DNA of 64,000 bases. Source: Acidobacteriota bacterium (GTDB lineage Bacteria; Acidobacteriota; UBA890; WLXD01). Of this stretch, positions 1,138-17,497 are shown piece by piece. The position numbers and the translations under genes are program-made. Position 1 is the first letter of the stretch. Every line of letters starts with the position of its first letter. The stretch covers positions 2,464,001-2,528,000 of the forward strand of contig CBDFKD010000002.1 of the NCBI GenBank assembly GCA_965248695.1, written 5' to 3'. The notes under the pieces are model-generated. The model was not told the origin of the DNA and ran no database searches. It saw only the letters and a program-made list of their open reading frames with translations.

Positions 1138-1381
1138 TCGCGCGCCACGGTGGAGTAGGTTGGCGAGGTGAGCGTATCGCCCGTTCGTGCGACGGTCCAC
1201 GGTGCGCGAAACTACCCTCAATAGGTCAGTCCACACATCGGAGTTGCCCGTACACGCGAGCGGCGAGCTCGGCCGGATGATGTGCCCTTCCGGCTATCCG
1301 AGGCGCGGAGAGCCGGTTCCGCGCCTGTGAACTGACGACGGTACTAGCGCCATCGGCTTTTCTAGAGACGCGCCGGCTTCT

Positions 1382-1390
1382 TGCTAAACT
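1382..1390 (+). promoter_or_regulatory. Putative extended -10 (TGcTAAACT) facing the tRNA half; also 4173-4181 (TGcTACACT) and 9228-9236 (TGcTAAACT)
   Basis: TGnTAnnnT conserved in all three type I right arms ~72 nt upstream of the tRNA 5' end. Confidence 0.45.
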
Positions 1391-1462
1391 GCGGGCACAG
1401 TTTGGGCACAATCGGCCTCACAAGATCCACCGTGCCGCTCGTAAGTGCCCATGAACAAAGGG

Positions 1463-1501
1463 GCGCCCGTAGCTCAGCTGGATAGAGCAGCGGACTTCTA
1501 A
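1463..1501 (+). repeat. 5' half of tRNA-Arg(TCT), copy 1 (att-like core)
   Basis: gcgcccgtagctcagctggatagagcagcggacttctaa identical to 15082-15120; no 3' half follows. Confidence 0.95.
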
Positions 1502-1650
1502 ACCAAACGGTCGCAGTTGGGGCTGGTTGGCGCTGCTTGGGGCTCGTTGGCTGGCGCTGGTTCCTGTTGGTAGCGAATCAGCCCGCTCTTGGTTCTAGTT
1601 GGTTCCAGTTGGTGCTGCTTGGTTCCCCGCGGGCACAATCGTGGGCACAG
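1502..1650 (+). repeat. Type I left arm: 10-bp periodic TTGG tract plus GGGCACA pair
   Basis: TTGG at 1517,1527,1537,1547,(CTGG 1557),1567,1589,1599,1609,1619; GGGCACA at 1631 and 1643. Confidence 0.9.
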
Positions 1651-1696
1651 TTTGAACCGCTGAGTACGTGGAGGACTCCGCAACTCGCTGACGCGG

Positions 1697-1735
1697 CTAC
1701 GGATCCGTCGGCACGAGCCGCTTCAGCTCGTCGAA
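1697..1735 (-). pseudogene. 3'-terminal remnant of a kinase-propeller gene (FDELKRLVPTDP*)
   Basis: Resembles the NWFEELKRLVP-type C-terminus of this kinase family; homologous to 9532-9586 and 12759-12816. Confidence 0.7.
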
Positions 1736-1928
1736 GTGCCAGGGCAAGGGGTCAGGCGTTCCCGGATCCACGGCGGAGAGCGTCTGGGAGTTGTCCCGCA
1801 GCGAATCCCTTGAGGAGCCCAACGATCAGTGGTTGTATCCAGGCGTCCCTCTACTGACCAAGCCAAGAACCTAACTCGACCAGGGTCATCTTGGACATCC
1901 CGGGAGGTAGACAGTGGTTGGAGGATCG

Positions 1929-3722
1929 ATGACGGAAACCAGGCCCCAGCTGTGGATCCTTTTGCTGGCGAGCCTGAGCATATCGGCTTGTCAGTCGTCC
2001 ACGCAGGACGCGTCGCCAGGCGATGCTGCCAGCCCTGCCGATTTGGTGCTGCAGGGCGGAAAGTTCTTTACCGTCGACGAAGCCCAAGTTTGGGCTGAAG
2101 CCGTCGCCATCAAGGACGGCAGGTTCGTGTACGTCGGCGACAACACTAGCGTACAGGGCTTCGTTGGCCCCGATACCGTTCGCCATGACCTCGGCGGCAA
2201 GCTGACAATTCCCGGTCTAGTGGATTCCCATACACACCCAGGTAGGATGGGGCGGGGCGGGGGCGTCTCGGTCCCCGTGGGTGGTGGTCCCAGAGGGAGG
2301 CTGCCCAGCGGCGGGAACAAGGAGGAGATCTTCGCTGCGGTGGAGGCATATGCCGAAGCCAACCCGGACCTTGCCTGGATCGAGATGGGTAGCTGGTCCG
2401 GGGATCTGTACGGCATCGCGGGCCCACATAGGAGAGATTTGGATCGCGTGGTACCGGATCGACCGGTGATGTTAGGAAGCGTCCATAGCGTTTGGGTCAA
2501 TTCCGTGGCGCTCGAGATGATGGGGGTCGACAGCAATACACCCGATCCGGTACCCGGTCTCTCATTCTTCGTACGGGATGCCGATGGGGAGCCTACCGGC
2601 TGGATCAAGGAATTTGCCACCTGGCCCTATGCGCAGCACCTTGCTGACGTTGACCCGGAGTCCCACAAGGAGGGTATCGTCACCTTCTTGGAGTACCTGT
2701 CAGGCCACGGCGTTACTTCACTCTTGGACGCTGGTAACCAAAACTACGACGATCTCGCGTACTCGCTGCTGGCTGAGCTAGAGGCGGCCGGTCGTCTGCC
2801 GGTTCGCCTCGAGGGCAGCTATCACATCTACTTGCCCGATCGGGTGCCCGATGCAATCGATGAGCTACAGCGGCTGCGCCGCACCTACGGCGGCGAACGT
2901 CTACGGTTCAACACCATCAAGATCCACTTCGACGGCACCAATGAGATTCGTACCGGCGCGGTGCTCGAGCCGTACAGCGATGACCCGGGCAACCGGGGCA
3001 CGACCCTGCTCGACACCGGACAGCTGCGTGACTTCATCGTGCAGCTTCACGAAGCCAGGATCGATCTGCACATGCACATCGTGGGCGACCGGGGCGTACG
3101 CATCGCCCTGGATGCGGTGGAAGCAGCGCGCAGGTCGGTCGACGGCGAGCTCTATCCACGCGTCACCCTGTGCCACCTGGACATCATCGATACGGCTGAC
3201 TACCCGCGTTTCAAACAGCTGGGTGTCATTGCCAACTACACGCCCCAGTGGCACGGCCTGGGAGACCGACTGCCGTTGACCGCCGGTACCCTTGGCCCCC
3301 GCTTCGAAAGGATGTTGCTGGTGCAGCCGTTACTGGATGACGGCGCGGTCGTGACCTTCTCCAGCGACGTGACATCGCTCGGGGCCATGGAGCGGGCCAA
3401 CCCTTATCTGGGGATGCAGATCGGCCACAACCGCCAATACCATCAACAAGGTGAGGCGGCGCCGATAAGGCTGCCGATGACCGAACGCCTGGACCTGGAG
3501 GATCTAGTCAAGGGATATACGTTGAACGGCGCCTACCAGCTCCGCATGGACGACCAGCTCGGCTCCATCGAGGTAGGCAAGCTCGCCGACCTGGTCGTGC
3601 TCGATCGCAACCTGTTCGAAATCGATCGGTACGAGATCCACGAGGTTCGACCCGAAGCGGTCATCATGGAAGGCGAGATCATCAGGGGGAGCTTAGACAG
3701 CGGCGCGGAGCTGAGGCCATAG
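1929..3722 (+). CDS. Amidohydrolase_3 (YtcJ-like) lipoprotein
   Basis: PGLVDSHTH, HIVGDRG, FSSD, GSIEVGKLADLVVLD; lipobox ISAC; GGAGGA before ATG 1929. Confidence 0.9.
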   Translation: MTETRPQLWILLLASLSISACQSSTQDASPGDAASPADLVLQGGKFFTVDEAQVWAEAVAIKDGRFVYVGDNTSVQGFVGPDTVRHDLGGKLTIPGLVDSHTHPGRMGRGGGVSVPVGGGPRGRLPSGGNKEEIFAAVEAYAEANPDLAWIEMGSWSGDLYGIAGPHRRDLDRVVPDRPVMLGSVHSVWVNSVALEMMGVDSNTPDPVPGLSFFVRDADGEPTGWIKEFATWPYAQHLADVDPESHKEGIVTFLEYLSGHGVTSLLDAGNQNYDDLAYSLLAELEAAGRLPVRLEGSYHIYLPDRVPDAIDELQRLRRTYGGERLRFNTIKIHFDGTNEIRTGAVLEPYSDDPGNRGTTLLDTGQLRDFIVQLHEARIDLHMHIVGDRGVRIALDAVEAARRSVDGELYPRVTLCHLDIIDTADYPRFKQLGVIANYTPQWHGLGDRLPLTAGTLGPRFERMLLVQPLLDDGAVVTFSSDVTSLGAMERANPYLGMQIGHNRQYHQQGEAAPIRLPMTERLDLEDLVKGYTLNGAYQLRMDDQLGSIEVGKLADLVVLDRNLFEIDRYEIHEVRPEAVIMEGEIIRGSLDSGAELRP

Positions 3723-3756
3723 CGGCAGCTGCGGCTTCGTGCGCACCTCGGCAGAT

Positions 3757-3857
3757 GGCGGCTTCGATGCAAGCACGGGACATCGAGGCCATCACAGTGA
3801 ACCGCTTGCCGCACGGCTACGCTGGCGGCGCCAACCGCCTTTACGACCCCGCGTGGG
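3757..3857 (+). pseudogene. Fragment of an SpdH-like flavoprotein gene
   Basis: GGFD..DIEAITVNRLPHGYA matches GGFDPARDIEAITVNRWPHGYA in 41387-43378. Confidence 0.75.
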
Positions 3858-3858
3858 A

Positions 3859-3927
3859 CTCTCCCATGCCGCCAACGCCGAGCTATCCGGTGATCTCGTA
3901 GGGGCCTAGTTTGGTGCCGGGTCCCAT
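3859..3927 (-). pseudogene. 5'-terminal remnant of a Ser/Thr kinase (MGPGTKLGPYEITG*LGVGGMGE)
   Basis: Colinear with the start of the kinase at 1137; in-frame TAG at 3883-3885; ends after the Gly-rich loop. Confidence 0.85.
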
Positions 3928-4252
3928 GGCGCTACCAGAGGGAGGTAGGTGGGCGCGTGAAGCGTATCGTCAGCCCATGCGAAGGTCCACGGGGCGCGAA
4001 ATCACCCGCTATACGTCAGTCCACACATCGGGGATGCTCCGTCGGAGAGAGCATCGGACGTAACCAAGCGATGTTTCCTTTCCGCTATCCGAGGCGCGGA
4101 GAATCGGTTCTGCGCCTGTGAGCCGACGACGGTGCTAGCGCCATCGGTGTTTCCAGAGAGGCGCTGACTTCTTGCTACACTTCGGGCACAGTTTGGGCAC
4201 AATCACGGTCACAGAATCCACCCTGCGGCTCGTAAGTGCCCATGAATAAAGG

Positions 4253-4291
4253 GCGCCCGTAGCTCAGCTGGATAGAGCAGCGGACTTCTAA
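4253..4291 (+). repeat. 5' half of tRNA-Arg(TCT), copy 2
   Basis: Identical 39-mer. Confidence 0.95.
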
Positions 4292-4631
4292 ACCAAACGG
4301 TCGCAGTTGGTGCTGGTTGGCGCTGCTTGGTGCTCGTTGGCTGGCGTTGGTTCCTGTTGATAGCGAATCAGCCCGCTCTTGGTTCTAGTTGGCTCCAGTT
4401 GGTGCTCGTTGGTTCCCCGCGGGCACAATCGTGGGCACAGCGGCGGAGCACAGTGTCGTCTCTGGCAGGTCTAGGCGACATCTTGATCACGCGCGAATTC
4501 GGCGCACCTCCGCCGAGAACGCGCACGCCCAGCCCATCGCCAGGCCAATCGGGCGAAGCTCAGGACAATGAGACCTCCGCCGAAGCAGCGTGCGCCGGGC
4601 GCCTGATTCGCGTACGTAGTCGCACCACCGC

Positions 4632-6656
4632 TCACCGCAGTGCAAGCGCGACGAACTCAGCGGCGTGCTCGACGCCGCCGACCGCGACGACTATGAACTG
4701 TTTCTCCTCGTGCATGTACGTGATCGGCGCACCGGTAGTGCCAGCGGGGAGCGCCGTCTCCCACAGAATGTCGCCAGTCTCCTTGTCGTAGGCGCGGAAC
4801 TTGTCGCCGCCGGACGTCGGAATCGCATACAGGGGCATCCCCTCCGGGACGCGCCTGGCCCAGTTGTGGTGCGACATCACCGGGTCGCCCTCGCCGACGA
4901 ACAGGAGCGTCTTCGTCAGCAACGGCGCTGCGCGCCCCGGCAGCCCGAGCCTCGGCAGGTTCAGGTGAGCGATCGCGGGATGGTCCCGCGGTCCCTCGCC
5001 GTTGGGGACCATCCAATCGATCTCGCCCTGGTTCATGTCATATGCGGTGATCCGCCCGTATGGCGGCTTGATGAGCGGCAGCCCTTGCGGACCATTGATG
5101 TAGCGTCGCGCGCCGCGAACGTAGCGCAGGTCCGCTGTGTCCGGGGGGCCTGCGAGGATGTCCGCGGCGAATGGTCCGGTTATGGACTGGACGTACAGGC
5201 GACCGGTGTCGGGGTCGAAGGCGGCGCTCTGCCAGTCGCCGCCTCCCTGTCCGCCCGGAAGCTGGATCGTGCCGAGGGTGCTGTTCGGGTCGTCGCTGCG
5301 AATCGAGGGCGGCGTGAACATCGGCCCGATGACGTAGCGATTCACGATCCGCTCTGCCTTCGCACGCAGCTCGGGCGTGAAGTCGATCAGATCGTCAATC
5401 GACACCCCCTGGCGGTCGAACGGCGGTGGCTTGGTCGGAAACGGCTGGGTCGGCGCGGTGCGTTCGCCCGGCGTGTTCGATTTCGGTACCGGGCGCTCTT
5501 CGATGGGCCAGATCGATTCTCCGGTCACCCTGTCGAACACGAACAGGAACGCGTTCTTGGTGACCTGGATGGCTGTCTTGCGACGCCGTCCGTCCACCGT
5601 GAGGTCGGCCAATATGGGCGCCGACGGCAGATCGAAGTTCCATAGAGGATGATGGACGGTCTGGAAATGCCAGATGCGCTCACCGGTCTCCGCGTCCACG
5701 CATACCAAGCTCTGGCCGTAGAGATTGTCCCCGAGACGATGGCCGCCGTACATGTCGTTGGTCGGCGAGCTGAGCGGCAGGTACACGTACCCCAACTCTT
5801 CGTCGACCGACATGTATGCCCAGAGGTTAGTGTGGCCGCTGTAACGCCAGCTCTCGTCCTCCCAGGTGTCGGTGCCGAACTCGCCGGCCTGCGGAACCAC
5901 ATGGAACGTCCAGCGCAGCGCGCCCGTCCGCACGTCGAACGCCCGCACGTCGCCGCGAGGTTGCGCCATGGTCGGGGGGCCGTCCGACATCGATTGACCC
6001 ACGATGACGACCTCCCCTGTGACCAGCGGAACGCCGGTCCACCAGTACGGTGAGCGCGGCGGGCCAAGGCCCTCGGCCAGATCGACCATGCCGGCATTGC
6101 CGAAGTCCGGATACACACGACCGGTCTTGGCATTGAGGGCGATCAAATGCTCGCCCCCGACGGCGAGAATGCGCGCATCCACGCCGTCGGTCCAATAGGC
6201 GACGCCGCGGGCGCTGTCTCCCCGTGATTGCCGTGGATCCTCCCCTGTGTCCTGCAGCCAGATGGTTCGTCCGCTCCCGGGGTCGAACGCCTCGACCAAC
6301 CCCACGCCGTTCGACGCGTACAGGACACCGTCGACCATCAACGGCGTCGATCTGAAGTTGTTGGAGAACTGCAAGCCGGGGTTCGCGTCGATGATCGCGG
6401 TGGCGACGGCCGGGCGCCGCCAGACGATGCGCAAACGGTCGACGTTGTCCCTGTCGATCTGGTCGAGCGGTGCGTACTTCGTACTGGCGGGGTCGCCGTT
6501 GTAGCTCCGCCACTCGCCGGCGGCCGCGCCTGTCTGGGCCGCGCCTGACACCCCGATGGCGCCCAGCAGACAAGCACACGCGGTCGACAGCGCCCGTCGT
6601 TTACCGAACCGTTTGCGATCCCGCGAACACGAAGCTCCCATCCGCATACCCCTCAC
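4632..6656 (-). CDS. PQQ-dependent glucose/quinate dehydrogenase-like propeller protein
   Basis: KYAPLDQIDRDNV, WHFQTVHHPLWNFDLP, KPPYGRITAYD, GAPITYM; signal peptide; exact start uncertain. Confidence 0.85.
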   Translation of the reverse strand: MRGMRMGASCSRDRKRFGKRRALSTACACLLGAIGVSGAAQTGAAAGEWRSYNGDPASTKYAPLDQIDRDNVDRLRIVWRRPAVATAIIDANPGLQFSNNFRSTPLMVDGVLYASNGVGLVEAFDPGSGRTIWLQDTGEDPRQSRGDSARGVAYWTDGVDARILAVGGEHLIALNAKTGRVYPDFGNAGMVDLAEGLGPPRSPYWWTGVPLVTGEVVIVGQSMSDGPPTMAQPRGDVRAFDVRTGALRWTFHVVPQAGEFGTDTWEDESWRYSGHTNLWAYMSVDEELGYVYLPLSSPTNDMYGGHRLGDNLYGQSLVCVDAETGERIWHFQTVHHPLWNFDLPSAPILADLTVDGRRRKTAIQVTKNAFLFVFDRVTGESIWPIEERPVPKSNTPGERTAPTQPFPTKPPPFDRQGVSIDDLIDFTPELRAKAERIVNRYVIGPMFTPPSIRSDDPNSTLGTIQLPGGQGGGDWQSAAFDPDTGRLYVQSITGPFAADILAGPPDTADLRYVRGARRYINGPQGLPLIKPPYGRITAYDMNQGEIDWMVPNGEGPRDHPAIAHLNLPRLGLPGRAAPLLTKTLLFVGEGDPVMSHHNWARRVPEGMPLYAIPTSGGDKFRAYDKETGDILWETALPAGTTGAPITYMHEEKQFIVVAVGGVEHAAEFVALALR

Positions 6657-6662
6657 GGTTGC

Positions 6663-8930
6663 CTAGTCCTCCGCCACGGCGACGACGTGGTGTCGCGTTC
6701 GAAAGATCAACATGTCGTCCACGGCCGCCGGGGTAGCCATGATGATCTCGCCCATCGCGTTGACGGCCAAGCGCTCGAACTCCCTGCCGGCCTGAATCAC
6801 GACTACGTCGCCGTCCTCGCTCGAGAAGTACAGGCGGCCGTCGGCCGCTATCGGCGACGCCGAGTAGTGGCTGCCGCGGCTGAGGCGGGCCTGGTAGAGA
6901 CGGCTCCCGGTGGCGGCATCGTAGGCGGCGAGGATGCCGGTGTCCGAGCTCACATACAGGACGTCCCCGTAGAGAATCGGGGTCGGAATGAACGCACCAC
7001 CACGGTGGGTGCTCCACGCCACGTAGTCGTTCGAGACCGCGTCATCCGTCGGGGTGATGTCGCCGCCCCCACCGGGGCGGACGGCGTAGATCGGCTGCAC
7101 GCTACCGCCGCTGCCGCTCGTCAAGTAGATCAATCCGTGGCCGCTGATCGGTGCCGGAATGGCGTAGATCGAGTGCTTGGCCAGCCTCCATAGCTCCTCT
7201 CCGGTCTGCGGGTCGTAGCCGCGCGCGAAGTTCGGGGCCAGGGTGACGAGCTCGGTGCGTGGTGGACCCTCGTAGATCAACGGTGTCGCCCACGAAGGCG
7301 CCTCGTCGCGGGCGGTGCGCCAGACTTCGGCGCCGGTCTCGATATCGAACGCGGCGATGAACGAGTCGGCGAGCAGGTCCACCTGCAGAATCACGAGCCG
7401 ATCGTGAATGATTGGCGAGGCAGCCGTGCCCCACTCATAACTCGGATCTACGACATACCCCGACCCGAGCGTACCGAGGTCGCGCGACCACAGCAGGGTC
7501 CCCGCGGTGTCGTAGCAGTAGAGCCCCTCCGAGCCGAACCAAACCACGACGTGCGTCCCGTCGGTCACCGGCGTGGCATTGGCCTGAGACTGGCTCACGT
7601 GGCGCGCCGTCCGCGGGATCCCTTCGCGGGCCTCGCGTTCCCAGAGGACCTCGCCGCTCTCCCGATCGAGCGCATAGACACGCCAAGAGTGTGGCTCCCG
7701 ATCTGTCGTCGACCGGTTGTCGGCGTCGAGGAAGGAGTAGGCGTCAAAGCCATGACGAAAGGCCGTCGGGTCGTCGGTCAGGGCTACCGCTGTCGTCACG
7801 AAGATACGGCTGTCCCAGACGATCGGACTCGAATGACCTAGCCCCGGGATCGAAGTCTTCCAAGCGACGTTGATCGAGCCTTCGAGGTCCCAGGTCGTTG
7901 GCGGTACGGCGTCGAGAGCAACCCCAGAGCCCCGGACACCCCGGAACGATGGCCAGCGCGCCCCGGTTGCGGCCACCGGGGCGGCGACCGGGCGATCAAA
8001 CGCCGGCTGTAGTGTTCGTGCCGGCTTCGCTCTCGGCACCGGATCGGCGGTCCGCACGAACACCTCCGTGATGCCCTCTTCCCGGAGGCTTATCTTGCGC
8101 GGCGTCGGCAACCCGACCGGTCTGCTGACGAGCTTGGTGCGGTCGAACGATTTGAAGCTCAGCAGGTCGAGCGGCAGTAAGCCGACGCTCGGCTGTCCGG
8201 CCCGCTCGAGCAGCAGCTGGTCCGAATGGACGCTCGGCGCCAGGGTCAGCGAGCTCCCGGCGGCGTTTCGATAGATCCCCACCCAGAGGTCGCGCCGTTC
8301 CGCCGACGACAGACGATCGATCGGTCGAGGCTCGATCGCGCCCGCGGCCCGCAACGTTTCGGCGAGATCCGCCAGATCGTAGCTAACCGCGGCCTCGTAG
8401 GCGACGTTGAGTAACGACGGGTCGACCCCGCCCCTGGCGACGATCCTCTTCACCACGTCGAACCGGCCACTCCATATCAGATCCAGAAGTGACTCGCCGG
8501 CCGCGCCGGCACCCGCCTCGAGAAGCAGCTCGAGCATCGTTACCCGGGTCTCTTCTGCGGCTCCGGTACCTCCCATCCCGGCATGTCGCAACGGTGTCCG
8601 GCCCCACTCGAGATCCTTGGTGTCCGGATCGGCTCCGTTCTCGAGCAGCAACCGGACGATCTCGAGATGGCCTCGTTCGGCAGCAATATAGAGCGCCGTG
8701 GCGCCGCGGTCATTCGCAACCTCGACGTCCACACCATGGGCGAGCAGTGCGCCCACCGTGGCGGCATCGCCGTGGCCGGCCGCTTCTAGCAGGCGGTGAT
8801 CGCGGGACGGTGCCTGCAGCGTGGGGCCTGTGACGAGCACCGCGCAAAGTCCGGCACACAGAAACCACGCGTCAGATGCTGGCCCTTGCGCGTTCGCCAT
8901 CGGCCGCCGGACTGGGGAGAAGGTGCTCAT
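6663..8930 (-). CDS. Ankyrin-repeat plus PQQ/BamB-like beta-propeller protein
   Basis: GATALYIAAERGHLEIVRLLLENGADP; WPSFRG, IPGLGHSSPIVW, SASPIAADGRLYF; start inferred. Confidence 0.85.
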   Translation of the reverse strand: MSTFSPVRRPMANAQGPASDAWFLCAGLCAVLVTGPTLQAPSRDHRLLEAAGHGDAATVGALLAHGVDVEVANDRGATALYIAAERGHLEIVRLLLENGADPDTKDLEWGRTPLRHAGMGGTGAAEETRVTMLELLLEAGAGAAGESLLDLIWSGRFDVVKRIVARGGVDPSLLNVAYEAAVSYDLADLAETLRAAGAIEPRPIDRLSSAERRDLWVGIYRNAAGSSLTLAPSVHSDQLLLERAGQPSVGLLPLDLLSFKSFDRTKLVSRPVGLPTPRKISLREEGITEVFVRTADPVPRAKPARTLQPAFDRPVAAPVAATGARWPSFRGVRGSGVALDAVPPTTWDLEGSINVAWKTSIPGLGHSSPIVWDSRIFVTTAVALTDDPTAFRHGFDAYSFLDADNRSTTDREPHSWRVYALDRESGEVLWEREAREGIPRTARHVSQSQANATPVTDGTHVVVWFGSEGLYCYDTAGTLLWSRDLGTLGSGYVVDPSYEWGTAASPIIHDRLVILQVDLLADSFIAAFDIETGAEVWRTARDEAPSWATPLIYEGPPRTELVTLAPNFARGYDPQTGEELWRLAKHSIYAIPAPISGHGLIYLTSGSGGSVQPIYAVRPGGGGDITPTDDAVSNDYVAWSTHRGGAFIPTPILYGDVLYVSSDTGILAAYDAATGSRLYQARLSRGSHYSASPIAADGRLYFSSEDGDVVVIQAGREFERLAVNAMGEIIMATPAAVDDMLIFRTRHHVVAVAED

Positions 8931-9117
8931 GGCCTCAATAGTTCGTCTGATTAAGGACCTCGTCTGGCAGGGGCCCTCATGGCGCGGTGCCAACGTATGG
9001 GCCCGCGGCGATAGCCTAGCGCCGCTGCGGACAGGGTCCAAGAGCCACAACGGTGTGCGGCATGGACGCCTGTCTCGAGCCGCTGGGCTGGCGGTCATCC
9101 GAGGCAAGCCCGACGCC

Positions 9118-9150
9118 GCGTTCCAGGAGCGGCAGATCAGCAACTACGAC
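9118..9150 (+). pseudogene. Short remnant of an M24/DoeA-like hydrolase gene (AFQERQISNYD)
   Basis: 31/33 nt match to 52058-52090. Confidence 0.6.
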
Positions 9151-9308
9151 TATCGCCGTGATCTCCTTGATCCACGTCAGTCGTTACGAACGGCAGCTCC
9201 GCTGGCCGTCGGACCGAGGCGACTTGTTGCTAAACTGCGGGCACAGCTCGGGCACAATCGGCCTCACAAAATCCACCGTGCGGCCCGTAAGTGCCCATGA
9301 ACAAAGGG

Positions 9309-9347
9309 GCGCCCGTAGCTCAGCTGGATAGAGCAGCGGACTTCTAA
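9309..9347 (+). repeat. 5' half of tRNA-Arg(TCT), copy 3 (type I / type II junction)
   Basis: Identical 39-mer. Confidence 0.95.
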
Positions 9348-9485
9348 GTCACTTCACTCGACTGGGCGGGGCTTGTTTCTACTTGTATCTAGTTGCATCC
9401 AATCGACTTGTGCCCGAACCGAAGTGACTGCGAGTTGTATGTTCTTGTATCTAGTTGGACGTAAATTGGCAGGAATTTGGCAAGG
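9348..9485 (+). repeat. Type II left arm: 10-bp periodic TTG tract plus TTGGCA pair
   Basis: TTG at 9373,9383,9393 and 9435,9445,9455; TTGGCA at 9466 and 9477. Confidence 0.85.
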
Positions 9486-9531
9486 TCTGAGCTGAGTACG
9501 TAGCGTGGCTCGCGAGACTCCGCTGACGCCG

Positions 9532-9586
9532 CTACGGGTCCGTCGGCACGAGCCGCTGCTCGTCGAACCAGGTGGTGGCGAGGTTG
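9532..9586 (-). pseudogene. Kinase 3' remnant (NLATTWFDEQRLVPTDP*)
   Basis: Homologous to 1697-1735 and 12759-12816. Confidence 0.7.
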
Positions 9587-9607
9587 TGGTCCAGGGCACC
9601 CGCCCGC

Positions 9608-12265
9608 CTAGCCCACGTCCTTGCCGAGCACGACGAGCTTCTTGAGCAGCACCGCGCCTTTGACGTTCCACACCTGTATCTCTGGCGGAGCATCGAACTT
9701 ACGCCCCATCAGGGCAAGGTCTTTGCGTCCCTTGCGTGCGAAGACGATTCCGGCGGCGCCGATCTGCGCGTAGCTGCCGTCGAAGACCTGAACGCGTGAA
9801 CCGGAGGCCTTGCCGTCGCGGCCGAACATCTGGAACCCGACATTGCCGTCGCCCAGGTGGCGCGTGACGACCACGATCTCATCGCCGTTGTCGGCGTTGC
9901 CGTCGAACTCTTGGGGGAACGCGCCGAGCACCTCGTACTCCTTGCCGGCGACCGTGCCGCCTCCCACCCGCTTGGCCTTCTTGCGGCTCGGATCCCACAC
10001 CTCGAAGGCCGCATCGCCGTTAGGCCGCGTGAACCCGACTACCACCAGGCGGCGTACCGCCCCCTTCGGCCCCGGCCGCGACCGAATCGTTCCCCAGCCG
10101 AGCACCGGATCGGCGGCAATGGCACCGCTCTTGGAAAGCTGATTCCCGTTCGCCGCCAGCACCTTGAAGAACGCCCTTGATCTTGTCTTGCGGTACCCGA
10201 CCAGGAGCTCACCGCCGGGCCGGGCAGAATCGAAGTCGCCGACCGTCCACAAGGCCTCGTCGAAGCCCGCGCTGAGGACCTTCTTGTTGAGCAGCGTCTT
10301 GCCGCTGCGCGGATCGACGATGAGCAACGTCGACCCCCTGCCGTTGCCACCGCTGTATGCGGCAACCACCTCGTCGGATCCGTCGTTATCGGTGTCTAAC
10401 CGGAGCCATTGGTGAAACGCCGACTTGGCCCCAATCACGGCGTGATCGGCCAGCTTCTGCAGCTTCTTGCCGCTCGCCGACGTGCCCCAGACGGTGAGAT
10501 GTCCGGTGCCCTTCTTGGCGGTGGTGGCGATCCCGATCTCGTCGCCTCGCGTGCCGTCGTATCTGAGCGCGAACAGCTGGCTGCGCAAGGTGCCTGCCGC
10601 CCCCACCGTCTTGCGATCGCGCAGCGCACCCTTGTCGCTGCGCAACTGCAGCTCTCTCACACCGGTGTCGAGGCCGCCGAGGAACAGCACCTCGGCCTTG
10701 CCTTTGCCGTCGGTGTCTACAGTGGTTGTGTACATGGCAGTGAACTTCTTCCCGGCGAAGAAGTTCCACACTCGCTTGCCTTTGTCGTTGTAGGCCTGGC
10801 TCCAGGCACCCCGAGCCGAGCCGCGGAACTCGATACTGTTGGCGCCAAGAGTCTGGAGGTCGTCGCCGACGAGGTTCCGTGTTCTTCCGGGCAGGTGCGC
10901 CGACGCTCCCGAGACTCCGGGACGAGCGCCGTTGGCAAGCCCCCGCGACGCGAACGCCACCCGCGAACAAGGGAATGCCGGGCGTGGGGGTGGGAGTAGA
11001 CCGATGCCGAGGACGCTGCCGCTGCCCGCCGCGCCTGAGTCGACAATGCCGCGGGAGAACGGGTCTACTTCGAACGTGCGGGCGGCCCTCGACAGGAAGA
11101 AATGGACGAACTGTATCGATCTCCGCACCCGTGCCGACGCGCACCCATCGTGATACTGAAAGACCGAGCGGGATTGACCGTTGATCGAGATTCCACCCTG
11201 CAAATTGTCCCCGAGATTATGATCGAGAGCGAAGCCCACGATGCCACCCTGTTGGTTCAGCGTGTTCTCGATGATTTTGATCCTCGGGTCGCTCGCCACC
11301 ACGATCCAGGGGTCGGGGGCGGCGCCGGTGACGGTGACGGTCAATTCGCGTTCGCAACCCTCAGTATCACAGAATGTCGGCGTCGACGGGGAGATCGTGA
11401 AGCTCACGTCACCTCCACCACCGCCGCCGCCACCGCCGCCGTCGTCGTCTTCGATGGTGCCGACTCCCTGCCCGTCGCCGATCGTCGGTTTCGCCGATCG
11501 AGCGATGTTGGACAAGTTCACGAAGAAGGTCTCGTCGCCCTCGTCGTCCGAGTCACCGTTCACTGAGACGTTGAACGTCTTGGTCTCGCCGGCGTTGCCG
11601 TTGAAGCTCAGCGTGCTGGTCTTGGCGGTGTAGTCGCTGCCGGCCGTGGCGCTGCCGTCGGCTGTCGCGGCCTGGACGGTGAAAGCGTCCGAGGCGGCCG
11701 ACAGCGTCACCGTGAAGCTGAAGTTCTTGCTGCCGCTGTCGCCCTCAACCGCCGTGACGTCGTTGATCGACACCGTCGCGTTGCCACCGCCCCCACCGGT
11801 GTCGCCGTCGGGGGTGATGGTGACCGTCGCCGTGTCGTCGCCGATCGTCACATCTGCAGCGCCGGCTCCCCCCACGCCGGTGATCTTCACGGTGAAGGTC
11901 TCGTTGCCCTCCACCTCCGTGTCGTCATGGATCTCGATGTTGAAGATTTTGGTTTGCGGCAGTCCCGTACCGGTCAGCGTCGTCGTTCGCCCAGTGTAGT
12001 CAGCGCCGTCCGTGGCAGTGTCGCCTGGCCCCGTGAATGCGGTAATGGTGAATTCGAAGTTGGGGGCGTTGCCGGTGAACGTCACGGGTACCAGGACCTG
12101 TGTGTCGCCCTCAACGACCGAGGTGTCGCCGACCGACAGCGTGCCGGGTAACTTGCCGCTCGCGGTCGGGCCAGCGGCGGCGATCTGCGGGGCGGAGATC
12201 AGCAGGATCGCCGCCAGCGCCAGCGCCGGGGATTTCAAACTCAATCCGAGATACTTGCGCATCAT
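9608..12265 (-). CDS. Secreted Calx-beta x2 / BACON-like / Lys-rich FG-GAP-like repeat surface protein
   Basis: Signal peptide; DDTEVEGNETF and GDSDDEGDETF Calx-beta motifs; poly-Gly linkers; DxDxxGxxE repeats; AAAGGA upstream. Confidence 0.8.
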   Translation of the reverse strand: MMRKYLGLSLKSPALALAAILLISAPQIAAAGPTASGKLPGTLSVGDTSVVEGDTQVLVPVTFTGNAPNFEFTITAFTGPGDTATDGADYTGRTTTLTGTGLPQTKIFNIEIHDDTEVEGNETFTVKITGVGGAGAADVTIGDDTATVTITPDGDTGGGGGNATVSINDVTAVEGDSGSKNFSFTVTLSAASDAFTVQAATADGSATAGSDYTAKTSTLSFNGNAGETKTFNVSVNGDSDDEGDETFFVNLSNIARSAKPTIGDGQGVGTIEDDDGGGGGGGGGGDVSFTISPSTPTFCDTEGCERELTVTVTGAAPDPWIVVASDPRIKIIENTLNQQGGIVGFALDHNLGDNLQGGISINGQSRSVFQYHDGCASARVRRSIQFVHFFLSRAARTFEVDPFSRGIVDSGAAGSGSVLGIGLLPPPRPAFPCSRVAFASRGLANGARPGVSGASAHLPGRTRNLVGDDLQTLGANSIEFRGSARGAWSQAYNDKGKRVWNFFAGKKFTAMYTTTVDTDGKGKAEVLFLGGLDTGVRELQLRSDKGALRDRKTVGAAGTLRSQLFALRYDGTRGDEIGIATTAKKGTGHLTVWGTSASGKKLQKLADHAVIGAKSAFHQWLRLDTDNDGSDEVVAAYSGGNGRGSTLLIVDPRSGKTLLNKKVLSAGFDEALWTVGDFDSARPGGELLVGYRKTRSRAFFKVLAANGNQLSKSGAIAADPVLGWGTIRSRPGPKGAVRRLVVVGFTRPNGDAAFEVWDPSRKKAKRVGGGTVAGKEYEVLGAFPQEFDGNADNGDEIVVVTRHLGDGNVGFQMFGRDGKASGSRVQVFDGSYAQIGAAGIVFARKGRKDLALMGRKFDAPPEIQVWNVKGAVLLKKLVVLGKDVG

Positions 12266-12536
12266 CCCCATCCTTTGAGGTCCCTGGCTACGGGACCCGT
12301 AGCCGATGCGGTCGCTTTCTAACGCGACGCCAGGCGAACCAGGACCCGTGACCATCCCACAAAACTGAACCCAGCGCGCGACCGCGCCCCCACCGTTGCG
12401 TTTCGCGTTCTTGGCACTCAGGCTGCCGGATATGATGAGCGTGCGGTTTGGCAGGGAATAGGCAAAGTCGCGTTAGGGCTCGATGGCGATCGGGTCGGCC
12501 TTGCCGTAAGTCATTGGTTCTATTGAACTTCTATGT

Positions 12537-12575
12537 GCGCCCGTAGCTCAGCTGGATAGAGCAGCGGACTTCTAA
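12537..12575 (+). repeat. 5' half of tRNA-Arg(TCT), copy 4
   Basis: Identical 39-mer. Confidence 0.95.
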
Positions 12576-12758
12576 GTCATTTCACTCGACTGTGCGCGTC
12601 TTGTTTCTACTTGTATCTAGTTGCATCCAGTCGACTTGTGCCCGAAGACGACTGACTCCCAGTTGTATGTACTTGTATCTAGTTGGACGTGAATTGGCAG
12701 GAATTTGGCAGGGCGGGCAGATCGAGGGTTGAGCTAGTTTTCGGGGTGCAGCCGGGCG

Positions 12759-12816
12759 CTACGGGTCCGTCGGTACGAGCCGCTTCAGCTCGTCGAACCA
12801 GTTGGTGACCAAGTTG
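12759..12816 (-). pseudogene. Kinase 3' remnant (NLVTNWFDELKRLVPTDP*)
   Basis: Best-preserved copy of the family C-terminal motif. Confidence 0.75.
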
Positions 12817-12837
12817 TCGTCCAGGTCACCCGCCCGC

Positions 12838-14865
12838 CTACTCCACGTCCTTGCTCAGCACCGCGATCTTCTTCAGCAACACGCCACCGTTGACGTTCCA
12901 GACCTGCACTTCTGGTTGGCTACCTACCTGGCGCGCCATCAGCGACAGGTCGACACGTCCCTTGCGCGCGAAGACGATCGGGCTGGCACTGGGGTTGATG
13001 TAGGTTCCGTCGAACACCTGCACCCGATCCCCGCGCTGCCTGCCGTCACGTCCGAACATCTGGAAGCCGATGTTGCCGTCGCCCACGTGGCGACTCACGA
13101 CGACGATCTCCCATCCGTTGTCGCCATCGCCGTCGAAGTCGAAGGCCGCGTCGCCGTTGGCACGGGTGAAGGCGACGACCACCAGGTCGCGGACGGTGCC
13201 CTTGGGGCCCGGCTTGGACTGGATCGCTCCCCATCCGTGCAGCGACTTGGCAGCGATGCTCTTGCTCGTCGAGAGTACTGCGCCGCTGGTCGCGAGCACC
13301 TTGAAGAACCCCTTGCTCTTCTTGCGGTACCCGACCAGGAGCTCGGCACCTGATCTGTCCGGATCGAAGTCGCCGGGCATCCACACGGCCTGGTCGAAAC
13401 CGGTCTTCAGGACGGTCTTGTTCACCAGCGTCTCGCCAGTCCGCGGATCGACAACGCGCAACGTCGCGCCTTTGCCGCTGGGAGCGCTGTAGCCTACGAC
13501 CATCTCGTGGCGGCCGTCGTCGTCGATGTCGAGCGGCATCCACTGATGGTTGGCCGACTTCGCCCCGACAACGGTGTGCTCGGCAAGCTTTCGCAGCTTC
13601 TTGCCTGACCGATCCCAGATCGCCAACTGGCCGGTGCCGTTCTTGGCCACATAAGCAATGCCGATCTCCTGACCCCGCTTGCCGTCGTGCTCTAGATTCA
13701 TCAGCCGTGCCGCTGTGGATCGGGCTGGAGTTACCGACTTCCGGTCCTGAAGTGCGCCGCTGGAGCTGCGCAGCTGGAGCTCTGTTGTGCCGGACCCCTG
13801 GTTACCGAGAACCACGGGCTCCGGCTTGCCGTTGCCTTCGGTGTCGATGCGCAGCAGTTGGAGGCCGGGAAACTTAGGGCCGGTGAACAGGTTCAGCGAC
13901 CGCTTGCCTCGACTGTTGTACTGCTGCACCCATGGGCCTCGCGCCGCGCCGCGATACTCCGGTGCGAGCACGTGGATCTCGTCGAGACCTTTGGCTCGGC
14001 GCGAGTCCGCGCGTCCGTCCGCGAAACCCCCGGCCGCCGGACTCGGCGGCTGGTTCTGCGATGAGTTGTTGCGGTTACTGGAATCGTTGTAATCGTCCTT
14101 GATGGACAGCCCGTAGAGAAACTGGTCATCGAGAGGGATTCCATCGATGTCACTGGCGATCGGAAAAAGAGTCCATGACGGGATACCACCGATCGAAGGT
14201 GTTGGAGCACTGCAAACGCAGGCTATTGCCACCTCTTCGGATATGGCCGAGGTCTGGGACACCGTATGCGTTTGGCTGCCGATGCGGACAGACGCAGACC
14301 GATTGAAACCGGTTTTGTTTGAGAAAACGCCGTAGAACAGACTGCCGTCGTCCTTTTCCTTCGCCGACTCAATCTGGATCCAGCTGTCGCTTGTTGAAGC
14401 GTTCCAGGTACCGGAGCCTCGGACCTTGATCTCAGAGCCTGAATACCCGTGCGCGGCAAAGCTGCGCGCCTGGTCGGAGATTTCGAGGCTGTCACCGCCG
14501 CCACCGTCGTCGTTTTGGATGGTGCCGACTCCCACCGGGAGGTTGTTGTTCGCCGGTATGTTCCCCGAGCCCTGGACGTTCGACAGCTGCACTTTGAAGG
14601 TCTCGTCGGGCTCGTCTTTGGTGTCGCCGAGCACGAGAACGGAGACGTTCTTCGTCTCGCCGGCATTGCCCGTGAAGTTGAGCGTTTGCTTGTTGATGGG
14701 CCCGTAGTCTTCGCCGCTGGTAGCGGTGCCGTTGGCGGTGGCAGCATCAACGCTGAACGAAGCGCTGGCAGTCGATAGCGTCACGGTGAAGTCGAAGGCC
14801 GTACCGTCGCCATCTCCGCCCTCTAGCTTGCTGACGTTGTTGATCGACAGCGTCGGGGTGTCGCC
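12838..14865 (-). pseudogene. 5'-truncated paralog of the cassette C surface protein
   Basis: Frame open but lacks start codon, signal peptide and first Calx-beta; joined directly to leader sequence near 14865; ~30-codon in-frame deletion near 13140. Confidence 0.7.
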
Positions 14866-15081
14866 GCGGTCGCTTTCTAACGCGAAGGACCCGTGACCAT
14901 CCCACAAAACTGAACCCAGCGCGCGACCGCGCCCCCACCGTTGCGTTTCGCGTTCTTGGCACTCAGGCTGCCGGATATGATGAGCGTGCGGTTTGGCAGG
15001 GAATAGGCAAAGTCGCGTTAGGGCTCGATGGCGATCGGGTCGGCCTTGCCGTAAGTCATTGGTTCTATTGAACTTCTATGT

Positions 15082-15155
15082 GCGCCCGTAGCTCAGCTGG
15101 ATAGAGCAGCGGACTTCTAATCCGCAGGTCGGAGGTTCGAATCCTCCCGGGCGCG
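15082..15155 (+). tRNA. tRNA-Arg(TCT), intact; CCA not fully encoded (CCT follows)
   Basis: Acceptor GCGCCCG/CGGGCGC, anticodon stem GCGGA/TCCGC, loop CTTCTAA, T arm GGAGG-TTCGAAT-CCTCC. Confidence 0.98.
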
Positions 15156-15212
15156 CCTTTGTGTTCACAACTTGCGAGGATTCAGGGCCGTCGAAGCCTC
15201 TCTGAACGATCC

Positions 15213-17483
15213 TCAGGGGTTGGTCGGCGGCGCCACGGCGACGACATGGTGCCGGGTGCGCAGGAACAATGTGTTGCCCGAGATCGCCGGCGTTGCCATC
15301 AGGCTCTCGTCCATCTGATTGACCGCCAGTCTCTCGAAGCTCGGCCCCGACTTGACGACGACCACCTCGCCATCCTCGCTGGAGAAATAGAGCCTGCCAT
15401 CTGCAGCCACCGGCGAGGCGGAGTAGGTGCCTCCACGGGTGAGCCGCGCGCGGTACACTCGCTCGCCCGTCTCCGCATCATAGGCGCTCAGCACACCGCT
15501 GACGCGTGAGCACACGTAGAGCAAGCCGCGGTAGACGATCGGCGTCGAGATGCCGGATCCGCCGATGCGCTTGGCCCAGGCAACGTGCTCGCTCGACGCT
15601 TCATCGTCGGCGAGCGTGATATCGCCCACCGCGCCGGGACGGATTGCGTAGATTGGCTCGACGGTGCCGTAGGCGCTGCTCAAATAGATCAGGCCGCGAC
15701 CGGCGATCGGGGTCGGTATCGTGAAATCGCTATGGAAGCCCAGCCTCCAGAGTTCCTCACCTGTCTCCGGGTCGTGGCCCCGGGCGAACCGCACTCCCGC
15801 GGTAACGAGCTCCGTGTGTCGGCCGCCCTCGTAGACCACGGGGGTAGCCCAAGAAGGATACTCGTCGCGCTCGCTACGCCAGACCTCCTTTCCCGTGGCG
15901 ATGTCCAAGGCCAGCAGGTAGGCGAACTTGCTGACGTCCACCTGGAGGATCACCAGGTTCTTGTGGATGATCGGCGAAGAGGCGGTGTTCCACTCATAGC
16001 CCGGATCGAAGTAACGCCCGGATGCCAGCGTGCCGAGGTCCCTCGCCCATAGTAGGTTGCCCTCCAGGTCGTAACAGTAGATGCCCTCGGAGCCGAACCA
16101 GACAAGTAGATGGGTGCCGTCCGTAGCAGGGGTTTGATTGGCGTGCGACGCGGTTACATGGCGGGCCGTTCTCGGTAAGCCCTGTCGCGCTGCCCGCTCC
16201 CAGAGGATGTCGCCGCTGTGCTTGTCGAGGGCGTACACCCGCCACGAGTGCGGAGCGTCTTCCTTGACGTAGGCCAGGACGCCTGAGTTCGCTGCCTCGG
16301 AGAAATCACGGAAGGTTGACACGGTCTCATCGGCCGGAACTGCCGTGGTCACGAACACGCGATCCCCCCAGACGATGGGGCTGGAGTGTCCGAGGCCCGG
16401 TATCGGCGTCCTCCAGGCGATGTTGATCGACTCTCGCACGTCCCAGGCGGTCGGCGGCGAGGCTCCGTCGGCGATGCCGGAGCCGTTCGGTCCCCGAAAC
16501 GAAGCCCACTCCCCAAGACCGGCGATCGCCGGTTCGGTGGTGATCGTATCGGCGGCGCGCGCCTCGACATCGACGGCGCGGAAGTCAACGCGGGCTGGCC
16601 TTGGCCGGATGGACACATCAGCCATCCGACGGAAGCGCTCGGATCGGTCGCCCTCATATAGAACCAGCTCGGTCGGTGGAAGCGTCCGACCTCTCAGGGC
16701 CACGAAGACCTTTCGCTCGCGGGACCGAAACAACATCTGATCGACGGGCACAAGCGCGACCCGCTTGCCGCCGCGGCGCTCGAGCATCAACTCGCCCTCT
16801 TCGAGGCCGGGCTCGAGCGTCAGCGCCTCCTGCGCCTGGCTGCGATAGATCCCCGCAATCCGAGCGAGCCGTTCCGCGGAGCGCACTTGATCGAGCGGAC
16901 CCGGCTCCTTGGCCCCCGCCTCGATCAACAGCTCGACCAACTCCGCTCGCTCGGCCCGCCTCGCCGCCGCCAGCGCCATGTTCACGTAGGAGGGGTTGGA
17001 ACCACCCCGGCCGACGATCGTTCGTACGGCCTCGAGGTAGCCGGCGCGGATCAGATCGACGAGTGGCGTTCCATCCCTTCCGCCTCCCTTCTCCACCAGC
17101 AACCGGATGATCTCCGCCCTCGCCTCCGGCGCCCGAACGTCCGTGTTCGATATGGCAGCGAGCATCAGCGGCGTCTTGCCCCACGGAGATCTGCCGCGCG
17201 AGGGGGGGCTGGAGTCGGGATCCGCCCCGTGCTCCAGCAACAGCCTCACGAGCTCGAGGTTGCCCCAGTCGGCGGCGGTATAGAGAGGTGTTACGCCGAA
17301 GCCGTTGTCGGCGTTTACATCGGCTCCCTCGGCAAGGAGCTCGCTCACCGCAGCGAGATCGCCGTCTGCCGCTGCGGTCACCAGTTGCTTGTTGAGGTCG
17401 TCCTGGCGTTGAGGCGATTGAGTGCCGAGCAGGAGGATCGACAGCCCGCAGATGTACGTCAGTCGGTGAGCTCGTGCACCCAC
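15213..17483 (-). CDS. Ankyrin-repeat plus PQQ/BamB-like propeller protein, paralog of 6663-8930
   Basis: GVTPLYTAADWGNLELVRLLLEHGADP; WASFRGP; IPGLGHSSPIVWG; GTG start inferred. Confidence 0.85.
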   Translation of the reverse strand: MGARAHRLTYICGLSILLLGTQSPQRQDDLNKQLVTAAADGDLAAVSELLAEGADVNADNGFGVTPLYTAADWGNLELVRLLLEHGADPDSSPPSRGRSPWGKTPLMLAAISNTDVRAPEARAEIIRLLVEKGGGRDGTPLVDLIRAGYLEAVRTIVGRGGSNPSYVNMALAAARRAERAELVELLIEAGAKEPGPLDQVRSAERLARIAGIYRSQAQEALTLEPGLEEGELMLERRGGKRVALVPVDQMLFRSRERKVFVALRGRTLPPTELVLYEGDRSERFRRMADVSIRPRPARVDFRAVDVEARAADTITTEPAIAGLGEWASFRGPNGSGIADGASPPTAWDVRESINIAWRTPIPGLGHSSPIVWGDRVFVTTAVPADETVSTFRDFSEAANSGVLAYVKEDAPHSWRVYALDKHSGDILWERAARQGLPRTARHVTASHANQTPATDGTHLLVWFGSEGIYCYDLEGNLLWARDLGTLASGRYFDPGYEWNTASSPIIHKNLVILQVDVSKFAYLLALDIATGKEVWRSERDEYPSWATPVVYEGGRHTELVTAGVRFARGHDPETGEELWRLGFHSDFTIPTPIAGRGLIYLSSAYGTVEPIYAIRPGAVGDITLADDEASSEHVAWAKRIGGSGISTPIVYRGLLYVCSRVSGVLSAYDAETGERVYRARLTRGGTYSASPVAADGRLYFSSEDGEVVVVKSGPSFERLAVNQMDESLMATPAISGNTLFLRTRHHVVAVAPPTNP

Positions 17484-17497
17484 GTCACTGGCGGCGC

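Follow-up and report, generated by a model that had tools for sequence, protein, structure and literature searches.

In the present study, a 64-kb stretch of an Acidobacteriota genome (G000:C2:2464001-2528000, called the window below) was analysed around the single tRNA gene detected in it by ARAGORN, a tRNA-Arg(TCT) gene at 15082-15157. The first 39 nt of this gene, ending with CTTCTAA in the anticodon loop, recur upstream in seven exact copies, and these copies delimit seven units of differing cargo whose ends carry paired short direct repeats of two kinds. We consider it reasonably probable (roughly 0.7) that the region is a tandem accretion array assembled at this one tRNA gene, that the paired repeats are arm-type sites of integrases with two specificities, as predicted from their sequence and position, and that the units are now devoid of an integrase.

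Several observations carry this reading. First, the tRNA-half copies at window positions 1463, 4253, 9309 and 12537 continue to the left of the window at C2:2452044, 2458438 and 2462211, giving eight junctions (J0 to J7) and seven units over ~27 kb; the three junctions outside the window were missed by an earlier model-made interpretation of the letters (the sequence-only reading). The displaced copies match tRNA positions 1-39, with the J0 copy extending over 1-42. This gene is the sole TCT isoacceptor gene found in the genome and the only tRNA gene there with a series of 5'-half copies displaced upstream, the displaced fragments linked to other tRNA genes being 3' parts. At each displaced copy the sequence to the right belongs to one of two unrelated right (P') arms, and both begin at one base, immediately after CTTCTAA, in 7/7 displaced copies, which is a mark of site-specific recombination. 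The left (P) arms likewise fall into two families, so that type I arms carry GGGCACA pairs and type II arms TTGGCA/TAGGCA pairs. The features of the window up to the intact tRNA gene are listed below with coordinates and strand (G and L numbers are our handles for genomes and loci; PQQ, pyrroloquinoline quinone; ORF, open reading frame; TRF, Tandem Repeats Finder; IHF, integration host factor).

1-1236 (-), Ser/Thr protein kinase gene (Pfam Pkinase, E 2e-54), cargo of the unit ending at J3, running off the left end of the window
1377-1462 (+), type I P arm of J3, pair 1393/1404, partial inverted copy GTGCCC at 1445-1450
1463-1501 (+), displaced 5' 39 nt of tRNA-Arg(TCT), exact match to 15082-15120
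1502-1650 (+), type I P' arm of unit A, TTGG tract 1516-1625 (TRF period 10), distal GGGCACA pair 1631/1643
1914-3722 (+), amidohydrolase gene (Pfam Amidohydro_3, E 1e-69), cargo of unit A
3859-4167 (no strand assigned), remnant of a kinase 5' end with its upstream region, duplicate of 1069-1376 (families D6, D13 and D17, 75-85% identity)
4168-4252 (+), type I P arm of J4, pair 4184/4195
4253-4291 (+), displaced tRNA-Arg 5' half
4292-4440 (+), type I P' arm of unit B, TTGG tract 4302-4416, pair 4421/4433
4632-9143 (-), cargo of unit B, comprising a PQQ-dependent dehydrogenase (4632-6656) and an ankyrin plus PQQ-like beta-propeller protein (6663-9143), both by Pfam
9223-9308 (+), type I P arm of J5, the hybrid junction, pair 9239/9250
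9309-9347 (+), displaced tRNA-Arg 5' half
9348-9485 (+), type II P' arm of unit C, TTGT tract 9372-9399, inverted GGGCACA 9409-9415, TTGGCA pair 9466/9477
9608-12355 (-), gene for a Calx-beta domain protein (915-aa ORF, Pfam Calx-beta), cargo of unit C
12428-12536 (+), type II P arm of J6, TTGGCA 12448 and TAGGCA 12459, IHF-like site 12507-12519 (-); left limit approximate, set by comparison with G003 and L063
12537-12575 (+), displaced tRNA-Arg 5' half
12576-12713 (+), type II P' arm of unit D, TTGT tract 12600-12627, inverted GGGCACA 12637, TTGGCA pair 12694/12705
12838-14907 (-), 5'-lacking paralogue of the unit C gene (72-78% nucleotide identity), cargo of unit D
14973-15081 (+), type II P arm of J7, TTGGCA 14993 and TAGGCA 15004, IHF-like site 15052-15064; now the upstream region of the intact tRNA gene
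15082-15157 (+), intact tRNA-Arg(TCT), the attachment target (ARAGORN; Rfam tRNA, 74 bits)

Over the whole array, the arms are combined as follows.

J0, left arm native flank, right arm type I
J1, left arm absent, the 3' end of an amidohydrolase gene being fused directly to the tRNA copy; right arm a type I variant
J2, J3 and J4, left arm type I, right arm type I
J5, left arm type I, right arm type II
J6, left arm type II, right arm type II
J7, left arm type II, followed by the tRNA 3' half

Thus, the two arms match in 6/7 units, which are all six that can be scored, and the remaining unit has lost its left arm. The sequence-only reading had described matched arm types in the four complete units of the window (A and B of type I, C and D of type II) and a hybrid junction at its third copy, and both descriptions were borne out, the hybrid occupying 9223-9485. 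The cargo differs from unit to unit according to Pfam searches of the 20 ORFs of the array and its flanks.

Unit 1, PQQ dehydrogenase, AMP-ligase, enoyl-CoA hydratase and a split amidohydrolase
Unit 2, ion channel and cytochrome-c/PQQ protein
Unit 3, Ser/Thr kinase
Unit 4, amidohydrolase and kinase remnant
Unit 5, PQQ dehydrogenase and ankyrin/PQQ-like protein
Unit 6, Calx-beta protein
Unit 7, 5'-truncated paralogue of the Calx-beta protein

Second, the repeat pairs, which are predicted binding sites, are distinct from the core on both arms and occur well above chance. The GGGCACA copies of the pairs lie on the + strand, and every coordinate that had been given for them and for TTGGCA and TAGGCA proved exact. 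GGGCACA-N4-5-GGGCACA occurs five times in the window compared with 0.01 expected by chance, and TWGGCA-N5-TWGGCA four times compared with 0.02; 0/100 shuffles reached five or four, respectively. In the whole 5.9-Mb genome, scanned with slightly relaxed patterns, the array holds 8 of the 9 GGGCACA-type pairs and 4 of the 9 TWGGCA pairs. Relative to the core, type I pairs are located at -70/-59 and +130/+142, and type II pairs at -89/-78 and +119/+130. Within one type the arms are 79-100% alike with sharp limits (the J3 P arm, for example, shares 85-92% identity with the P arms at 4168-4252, 9223-9308 and C2:2462126-2462210), and the adjacent cargo is unrelated or 72-78% alike. The partial inverted copy GTGCCC is a feature of the type I P arms and, like the inverted GGGCACA of the type II P' arms, had escaped the sequence-only reading. 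Both types of P' arm contain TCTAGTTGG and a tract with a 10-bp period (TRF), the copy number of which varies between species, so that core and pair are separated by 129 nt here, by 47 nt in G001 and by 37 nt in G004. The one-mismatch IHF-like site reported earlier is real: the reverse complement of 12507-12519, AACCAATGACTTA, differs at one position from the IHF consensus WATCAANNNNTTR. Together with its twin at 15052-15064 it is one of the only two sites with at most one mismatch in 1-16000, and both are located between the arm pair and the core of type II P arms; type I arms have none.

Third, an integrase family with such pairs at its 3' end was found in related genomes. The same junctions, together with further arm types, are present in the same-genus genomes G001 to G004 and also in G020 and G007. 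In G002 and G005, the P arm is immediately adjoined by a tyrosine integrase gene (363-406 aa) that is oriented toward the tRNA gene. The family (query L027:18051-19142) was detected in 8/26 genomes of the order and 43/401 genomes of the phylum Acidobacteriota, and its gene abuts the 5' end of genes for tRNA-Arg(TCT), SeC, Lys, Leu, Ser and others. A direct-repeat pair with 11-12 bp spacing is located at or just past the integrase 3' end, with sequences that differ by locus (GGGACA, GGGAAGG, AGGGAAAGA, GGGCACACT, GTTTGGGCAG, CCGGCACA, AATGGCTAAG, AACGTCAAA, CACGGACAC and AGAACCAGCAC; TTTGGGCAG is a further motif among these loci). Exact repeats of at least 7 nt, spaced 10-13 nt apart within 200 nt at the integrase 3' end, were observed at 19/31 loci compared with 8/93 in-gene control intervals and 64/1550 shuffles (18/30 loci when L080, from a genome flagged unpublished, is left out), although the 31 loci are related to one another and the counts therefore overstate independence. 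In addition, IHF-like sites with at most one mismatch follow the gene at 10/31 integrase loci and occur in 1/93 control intervals. A limited open-access text search on Acidobacteria mobile elements and tyrosine recombinases returned no paper on this integrase family.

The proteins of this family combine Pfam Phage_integrase and SAM-like N-terminal domains. In an AlphaFold model of the G116 integrase (21-row alignment, mean pLDDT 85.7), three strands and a helix at residues 19-64 precede the core-binding and catalytic domains, and among PDB structures the model is matched best by lambda integrase in its full length (1z1b_B, E 1e-8, 393 aligned columns), with 5j0n as another fold match. Lambda-type integrases bind direct-repeat arm sites flanking the core, and the proposal of the sequence-only reading that the pairs are arm-type sites of such enzymes is well supported by the integrase genes and arms of relatives. 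In the integrase tree, enzymes with GGGACA pairs and those with GGGAAGG/GGGAAAG pairs form sister clades (98/96 for the latter), with several tRNA targets in each, and in one sister pair (rows L070 and L078) the GGGCACACT enzyme stands with a GGGACA enzyme, both having tRNA-Ser as their target. By this topology, the arm motif follows the integrase lineage and the tRNA target switches independently. Residues of the N-terminal domain also track the motif (RKRG...ESSGS versus RQS/RTS...ESSH). GGGCACACT pairs lie beside the integrases of G116 and G243, both of which target tRNA-Ser. In G116, the P arm of the integrase-bearing element contains GGGCACACT twice, and the P' arm, found after a displaced tRNA-Ser half on another contig, shows TTGG-rich phasing, GGGCACACT twice and an inverted copy, so that both arms of an element with its own integrase have the type I motif. 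The integrase-bearing element of G005 carries GGGAAGG twice in the left arm and GGGAAGGTG twice in the right arm. On a metagenome contig (L062), the C-terminal remnant of an integrase precedes an intact tRNA-Arg(TCT); the tail of this remnant, which shares 80% identity over 46 aa with the GGGCACACT-type integrase of G116, contains GGGCACAgtttcGGGCACA, and GGGCACA stands beside it. Because the motif differs by integrase clade and the two arms agree in integrase-bearing elements, the two arm families plausibly represent two arm specificities. The further step of the sequence-only reading, that two integrases lie behind the two arm types, is plausible but unproven. A junction of mixed arm classes is also present at a different tRNA, namely a tRNA-Ser of G216 (L070/L090, G216:C337; L088, G216:C287), where an integrase arm of the GGGACAAT type is joined to a right arm containing GGGCACACT.

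Herein, we propose how such an array might have grown. Circular elements would integrate one by one through a tyrosine integrase and would cross over in the anticodon loop. Each element would bring its own first 39 nt of the tRNA gene and its own upstream region, pushing the earlier 5' half leftward, and each junction would thereby come to consist of the left-hand unit's P arm, a 5' half and the right-hand unit's P' arm. The pairs, spaced 11-12 bp apart at the outer ends of the arms, are predicted to bind the N-terminal domain of a heterobivalent integrase resembling lambda Int, and type I (GGGCACA) and type II (TTGGCA/TAGGCA) elements would be served by integrases of different arm specificity. 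Five type I units may have entered first and two type II units later. The present array is accordingly read as a relic or trans-dependent cassette array, which might be moved only upon the arrival of a matching integrase in trans. Since integration replaces the tRNA 5' half and everything upstream, the P arm must also supply the tRNA promoter; a sigma-70 promoter scan showed no promoter-like site in any P arm.

The units contain no recombinase of their own. The sequence-only reading had expected integrase genes adjoining each arm type, and none is present in the array or elsewhere in the window: tyrosine recombinases (PF00589) are absent from the window, the closest two of 13 matches in the genome being ~268 kb and ~296 kb off, and serine recombinases (PF00239) are absent as well, the two in the genome both lying >160 kb away. 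Pfam searches of the same 20 ORFs revealed no recombinase, and tblastn of a type III integrase against the genome gave a best E of only 0.015. When collections of other sequences were scanned for the pattern of P arm plus tRNA half, two loci were obtained among genomes, both in known relatives, and four among metagenomes, one of them by chance; no type I or type II unit with an intact integrase was among them, and a second metagenome contig with a II/II junction had no adjoining integrase either. A TTGGCA pair at C2:4470764, ~2 kb from an integrase gene, was considered as part of a helper element and dropped, as no tRNA is nearby and the site looks like the sigma-54 type; this intergenic site consists of TTGGCACGAAGTTGGCA followed by a third TTGGCG and resembles a sigma-54-type promoter.

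Several results weigh against the proposed accretion by integrases of two arm specificities, in addition to the relatedness of the 31 loci mentioned above. No member of the integrase family was found in this genome, where the best tblastn match to 25 family integrases reached E 5e-8 at 24% identity (C2:5713794-5714738) and is an unrelated-looking integrase with no tRNA within 6 kb. No significant integrase remnant was detected by blastx in the 500 nt upstream of six junctions of the genome (best E 0.23-1.9). Across five genomes of the genus, no family integrase with a GGGCACA or TTGGCA pair was observed (G003 gave no match, and a fragment at a contig end in G001 was unscanned for the pair). 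The link between N-terminal residues and motif has an exception in L057, which has a GGGACA pair and the residues of the GGGAAGG class. Every type II P' arm of the window contains an inverted GGGCACA (9409 and 12637), so that the two specificities are perhaps not fully separate. Units C and D are paralogues, which fits duplication or gene conversion as well as two integrations. Finally, arm matching is less regular in relatives: among eight scorable units, three are matched (in G001, G005 and G116), one is partially matched and four are mismatched, two each in G002 and G004. Frequent mismatched arms had been named in advance as evidence against matched mobile units, and this expectation is thus partly borne out in relatives, whereas all six scorable units here are matched; one mismatched G004 unit holds an internal remnant of a type I right arm, suggesting a deletion across a junction.

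Five other explanations might be considered, the first of which we hold only tentatively and regard as rather improbable. Type I and type II units could be two integrase-less cassette lineages that are still exchanged among Acidobacteriota, with an "arm code" setting which integrase in trans moves each. Hints of exchange come from the common left limit of type I P arms (~CTTCTTGCTAAACTGC in 10 junctions from four genomes and one metagenome contig), from the amidohydrolase of cassette A, which is 92.5% identical in G003 and stands there after a type II arm and here after a type I arm, and from a junction in G020, a member of another family, which is 88% identical compared with 74-81% for the neighbouring genes. 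The units are bounded by attachment (att) sites and lack recombination and transfer genes. Against mobility, shared cassettes are 89-93% identical between species, about as diverged as their flanks, and vertical descent with deletions would explain much of the cassette-sharing pattern as it appears from these comparisons. Public contigs (four runs of one sample and one study, probably the source) speak neither for nor against mobility: no core-to-core joint of tRNA halves was seen in them, but contigs cannot show absence. One public joint, 3708->15082, was rejected as an excision product, being an amidohydrolase-to-tRNA fusion of the J1 kind, and other public contig joints have sides of <30 nt. 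At J1 itself (G000:C2:2458300-2458476; L011 ~12647-14476), the amidohydrolase gene is split into two overlapping ORFs, and its fusion to the tRNA half is also present in G001 (L036:18730) and as a contig joint in one public run.

An unlikely alternative to two specificities is a single integrase acting on both arm families, in which case types I and II would have diverged from one class of site and kept a common GGCA core. GGCA is contained in both motifs, the inverted GGGCACA is kept in all type II P' arms examined (two in the window, one in G002 and one in L063), TCTAGTTGG and the 10-bp-period tract are common to both P' types, and mismatched units occur in relatives. However, close integrases carry different pairs (GGGACA versus GGGCACACT in L070/L078, and GGGACA versus GGGAAGG in sister clades), integrase-bearing elements have the same pairs on both arms, and 6/6 scorable units here are matched.

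Binding of the pairs by an accessory protein, either an excisionase (Xis)/recombination directionality factor or a host nucleoid protein, in place of the integrase N-terminal domain seems quite unlikely. Sites of the Xis type, too, typically have direct repeats separated by about one helical turn. However, the pairs are present on both arms, lie inside or just past the 3' end of the integrase's own gene throughout the family and change with the integrase clade, and no small excisionase-like gene was found among the cassette ORFs of at least 100 aa.

We give slightly less credit still to the possibility that unequal crossing-over, or tandem duplication with later divergence, was mainly responsible for the growth of the array in place of separate integrations. 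The P arms and tRNA halves of J6 and J7 are 100% identical over a 235-nt segment (12341-12575 versus 14886-15120), amidohydrolase and kinase fragments recur in several units, and the divergence of cassettes shared between species is about that of the flanks. The identical 235 nt lie beside gene bodies with 72-78% identity and indicate that gene conversion or duplication took place recently; at the border of this segment, the 5' end of the unit D gene is missing. The cargo is unrelated in most units, however, two unrelated arm families are joined at the same base, and cassette A stands after different arm types in G003 and here. In other words, duplication may account for units C and D, but not for the whole array.

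A reading of the pairs as sigma-54 promoters is very improbable, even though TGGCA-N6-TGGCA is similar to the -24/-12 consensus TGGCAC-N5-TTGCA, this genome has an RpoN gene (C2:4374283), GG and GC are 10 bp apart in type II and in 11-bp-spaced type I pairs and the tRNA promoter must come from the P arm, for the homologous pairs of relatives (GGGACA, GGGAAGG, AACGTCAAA and AGAACCAGCAC) are unlike this consensus, the P' pairs point into cassettes with genes on the opposite strand (units B, C and D), the type I P' spacing is 12 bp and not 11, and the same motif is found on both arms of a unit.

The proposed accretion of integrase-dependent units can be compared with several known systems. As in lambda attP, the core is flanked by long arms with predicted arm-type sites in direct repeat, a candidate IHF site separates these from the core (here in type II arms), and the integrase of relatives resembles lambda Int in having an N-terminal beta-sheet domain followed by core-binding and catalytic domains, full-length lambda Int being its best fold match. 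Unlike in lambda, integration here targets a tRNA gene in its 5' half, relatives have the P-arm pair within the integrase gene or at its end, one clear pair plus an inverted copy is seen on each arm in place of the P1-P2 and P'1-P'3 layout, and the units have no int or xis gene. The closest concept for the integrase-less units is that of cis-mobilizable elements (CIMEs), which, in the families of ICEs (integrative and conjugative elements) as well as IMEs (integrative and mobilizable elements) of streptococci, reportedly are att-bounded units without integrase that accrete in tandem at one site. The present units share this tandem att-bounded form; unlike CIMEs they have no helper element with a matching integrase in this genome, and unlike the ICE/IME families they have no conjugation genes and belong to another phylum and integrase family. 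Integrons do not fit, as the window has no PF00589 match and the junctions are ~270-bp composites of arm, tRNA half and arm and do not resemble attC sites (no attC model was run).

Among islands in tRNA genes, the Islander report describes regeneration of the target tRNA gene, displaced fragments at island ends and a crossover centred on the anticodon, as here (PMC4383910). In that report, a 5' fragment is displaced in 159/3919 islands, four tandems of at least three islands are given and an integrase is required for each island (PMC4383910), whereas the present array has seven units that all displace the 5' half and none with an integrase. The tycheposon islands of Prochlorococcus also grow by successive integrations that push older elements inward, leaving partial tRNAs between them and scattered, degenerate remnants (bioRxiv 10.1101/2020.12.28.424599). 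Unlike those islands, the present array lacks the hallmark genes (recombinase and replication module), retains both arms intact in 6/7 units and has two arm families. Repeated site-specific insertion at one small-RNA gene is likewise reported for the tandem ssrA islands of Dehalococcoides, with a different target and recombinase family (PMC3146451). Islands anchored at tRNA genes, tandem arrays and displaced fragments are already well known; the array is a well-documented and well-preserved variant of familiar genomic-island accretion and not a new mechanism.

The present results are nevertheless of use in several respects. First, they offer a clean natural case of a heterobivalent integrase family whose predicted arm sites are legible in the DNA; the P-arm pair is located at the 3' end of the integrase gene and varies with the clade. 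Second, the tRNA target varies independently of this pair, and arm and core specificity might therefore be tested separately in a little-studied phylum. Third, arrays overlooked by tools that require an integrase can carry many metabolic genes, over ~27 kb here and with remnants over ~85 kb. If cassettes do move in trans, a gene-capture system parallel to integrons would result; and if the arm code were true, this tRNA-anchored, integron-like capture would have the incoming cassette supply the promoter and the 5' half of an essential single-copy tRNA.

The figure of ~85 kb for the accretion zone follows from a decayed 5'-half copy far upstream (C2:2394505, 37 nt, 97%) and from two places (C2:2411332 and C2:2436884) where pieces of the distal type I right arm remain; these suggest that older, eroded cassettes extend the island to that length. 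In the eroded part, ~20 kb upstream of J0, a SelO-family gene (G000:C2:2430750-2432261) is the 91.6% identical counterpart of one that adjoins a type II left arm on a metagenome contig (L063, 6825-8387). On the other side, the first gene downstream of the intact tRNA (15213-17720, -) encodes an ankyrin plus PQQ-like beta-propeller protein and is paralogous to the unit B gene at 6663-9143 (70-72% at the nucleotide level); related genes are thus located both inside and outside the array. Rfam detected nothing besides the tRNA in 1-16000. Elsewhere in the genome, a 41-nt repeat at C2:4157204 has ~45 other copies on both contigs, one of which is called a 98-nt tRNA-Pro(GGG) by ARAGORN; the family probably represents a small interspersed repeat rather than a tRNA.

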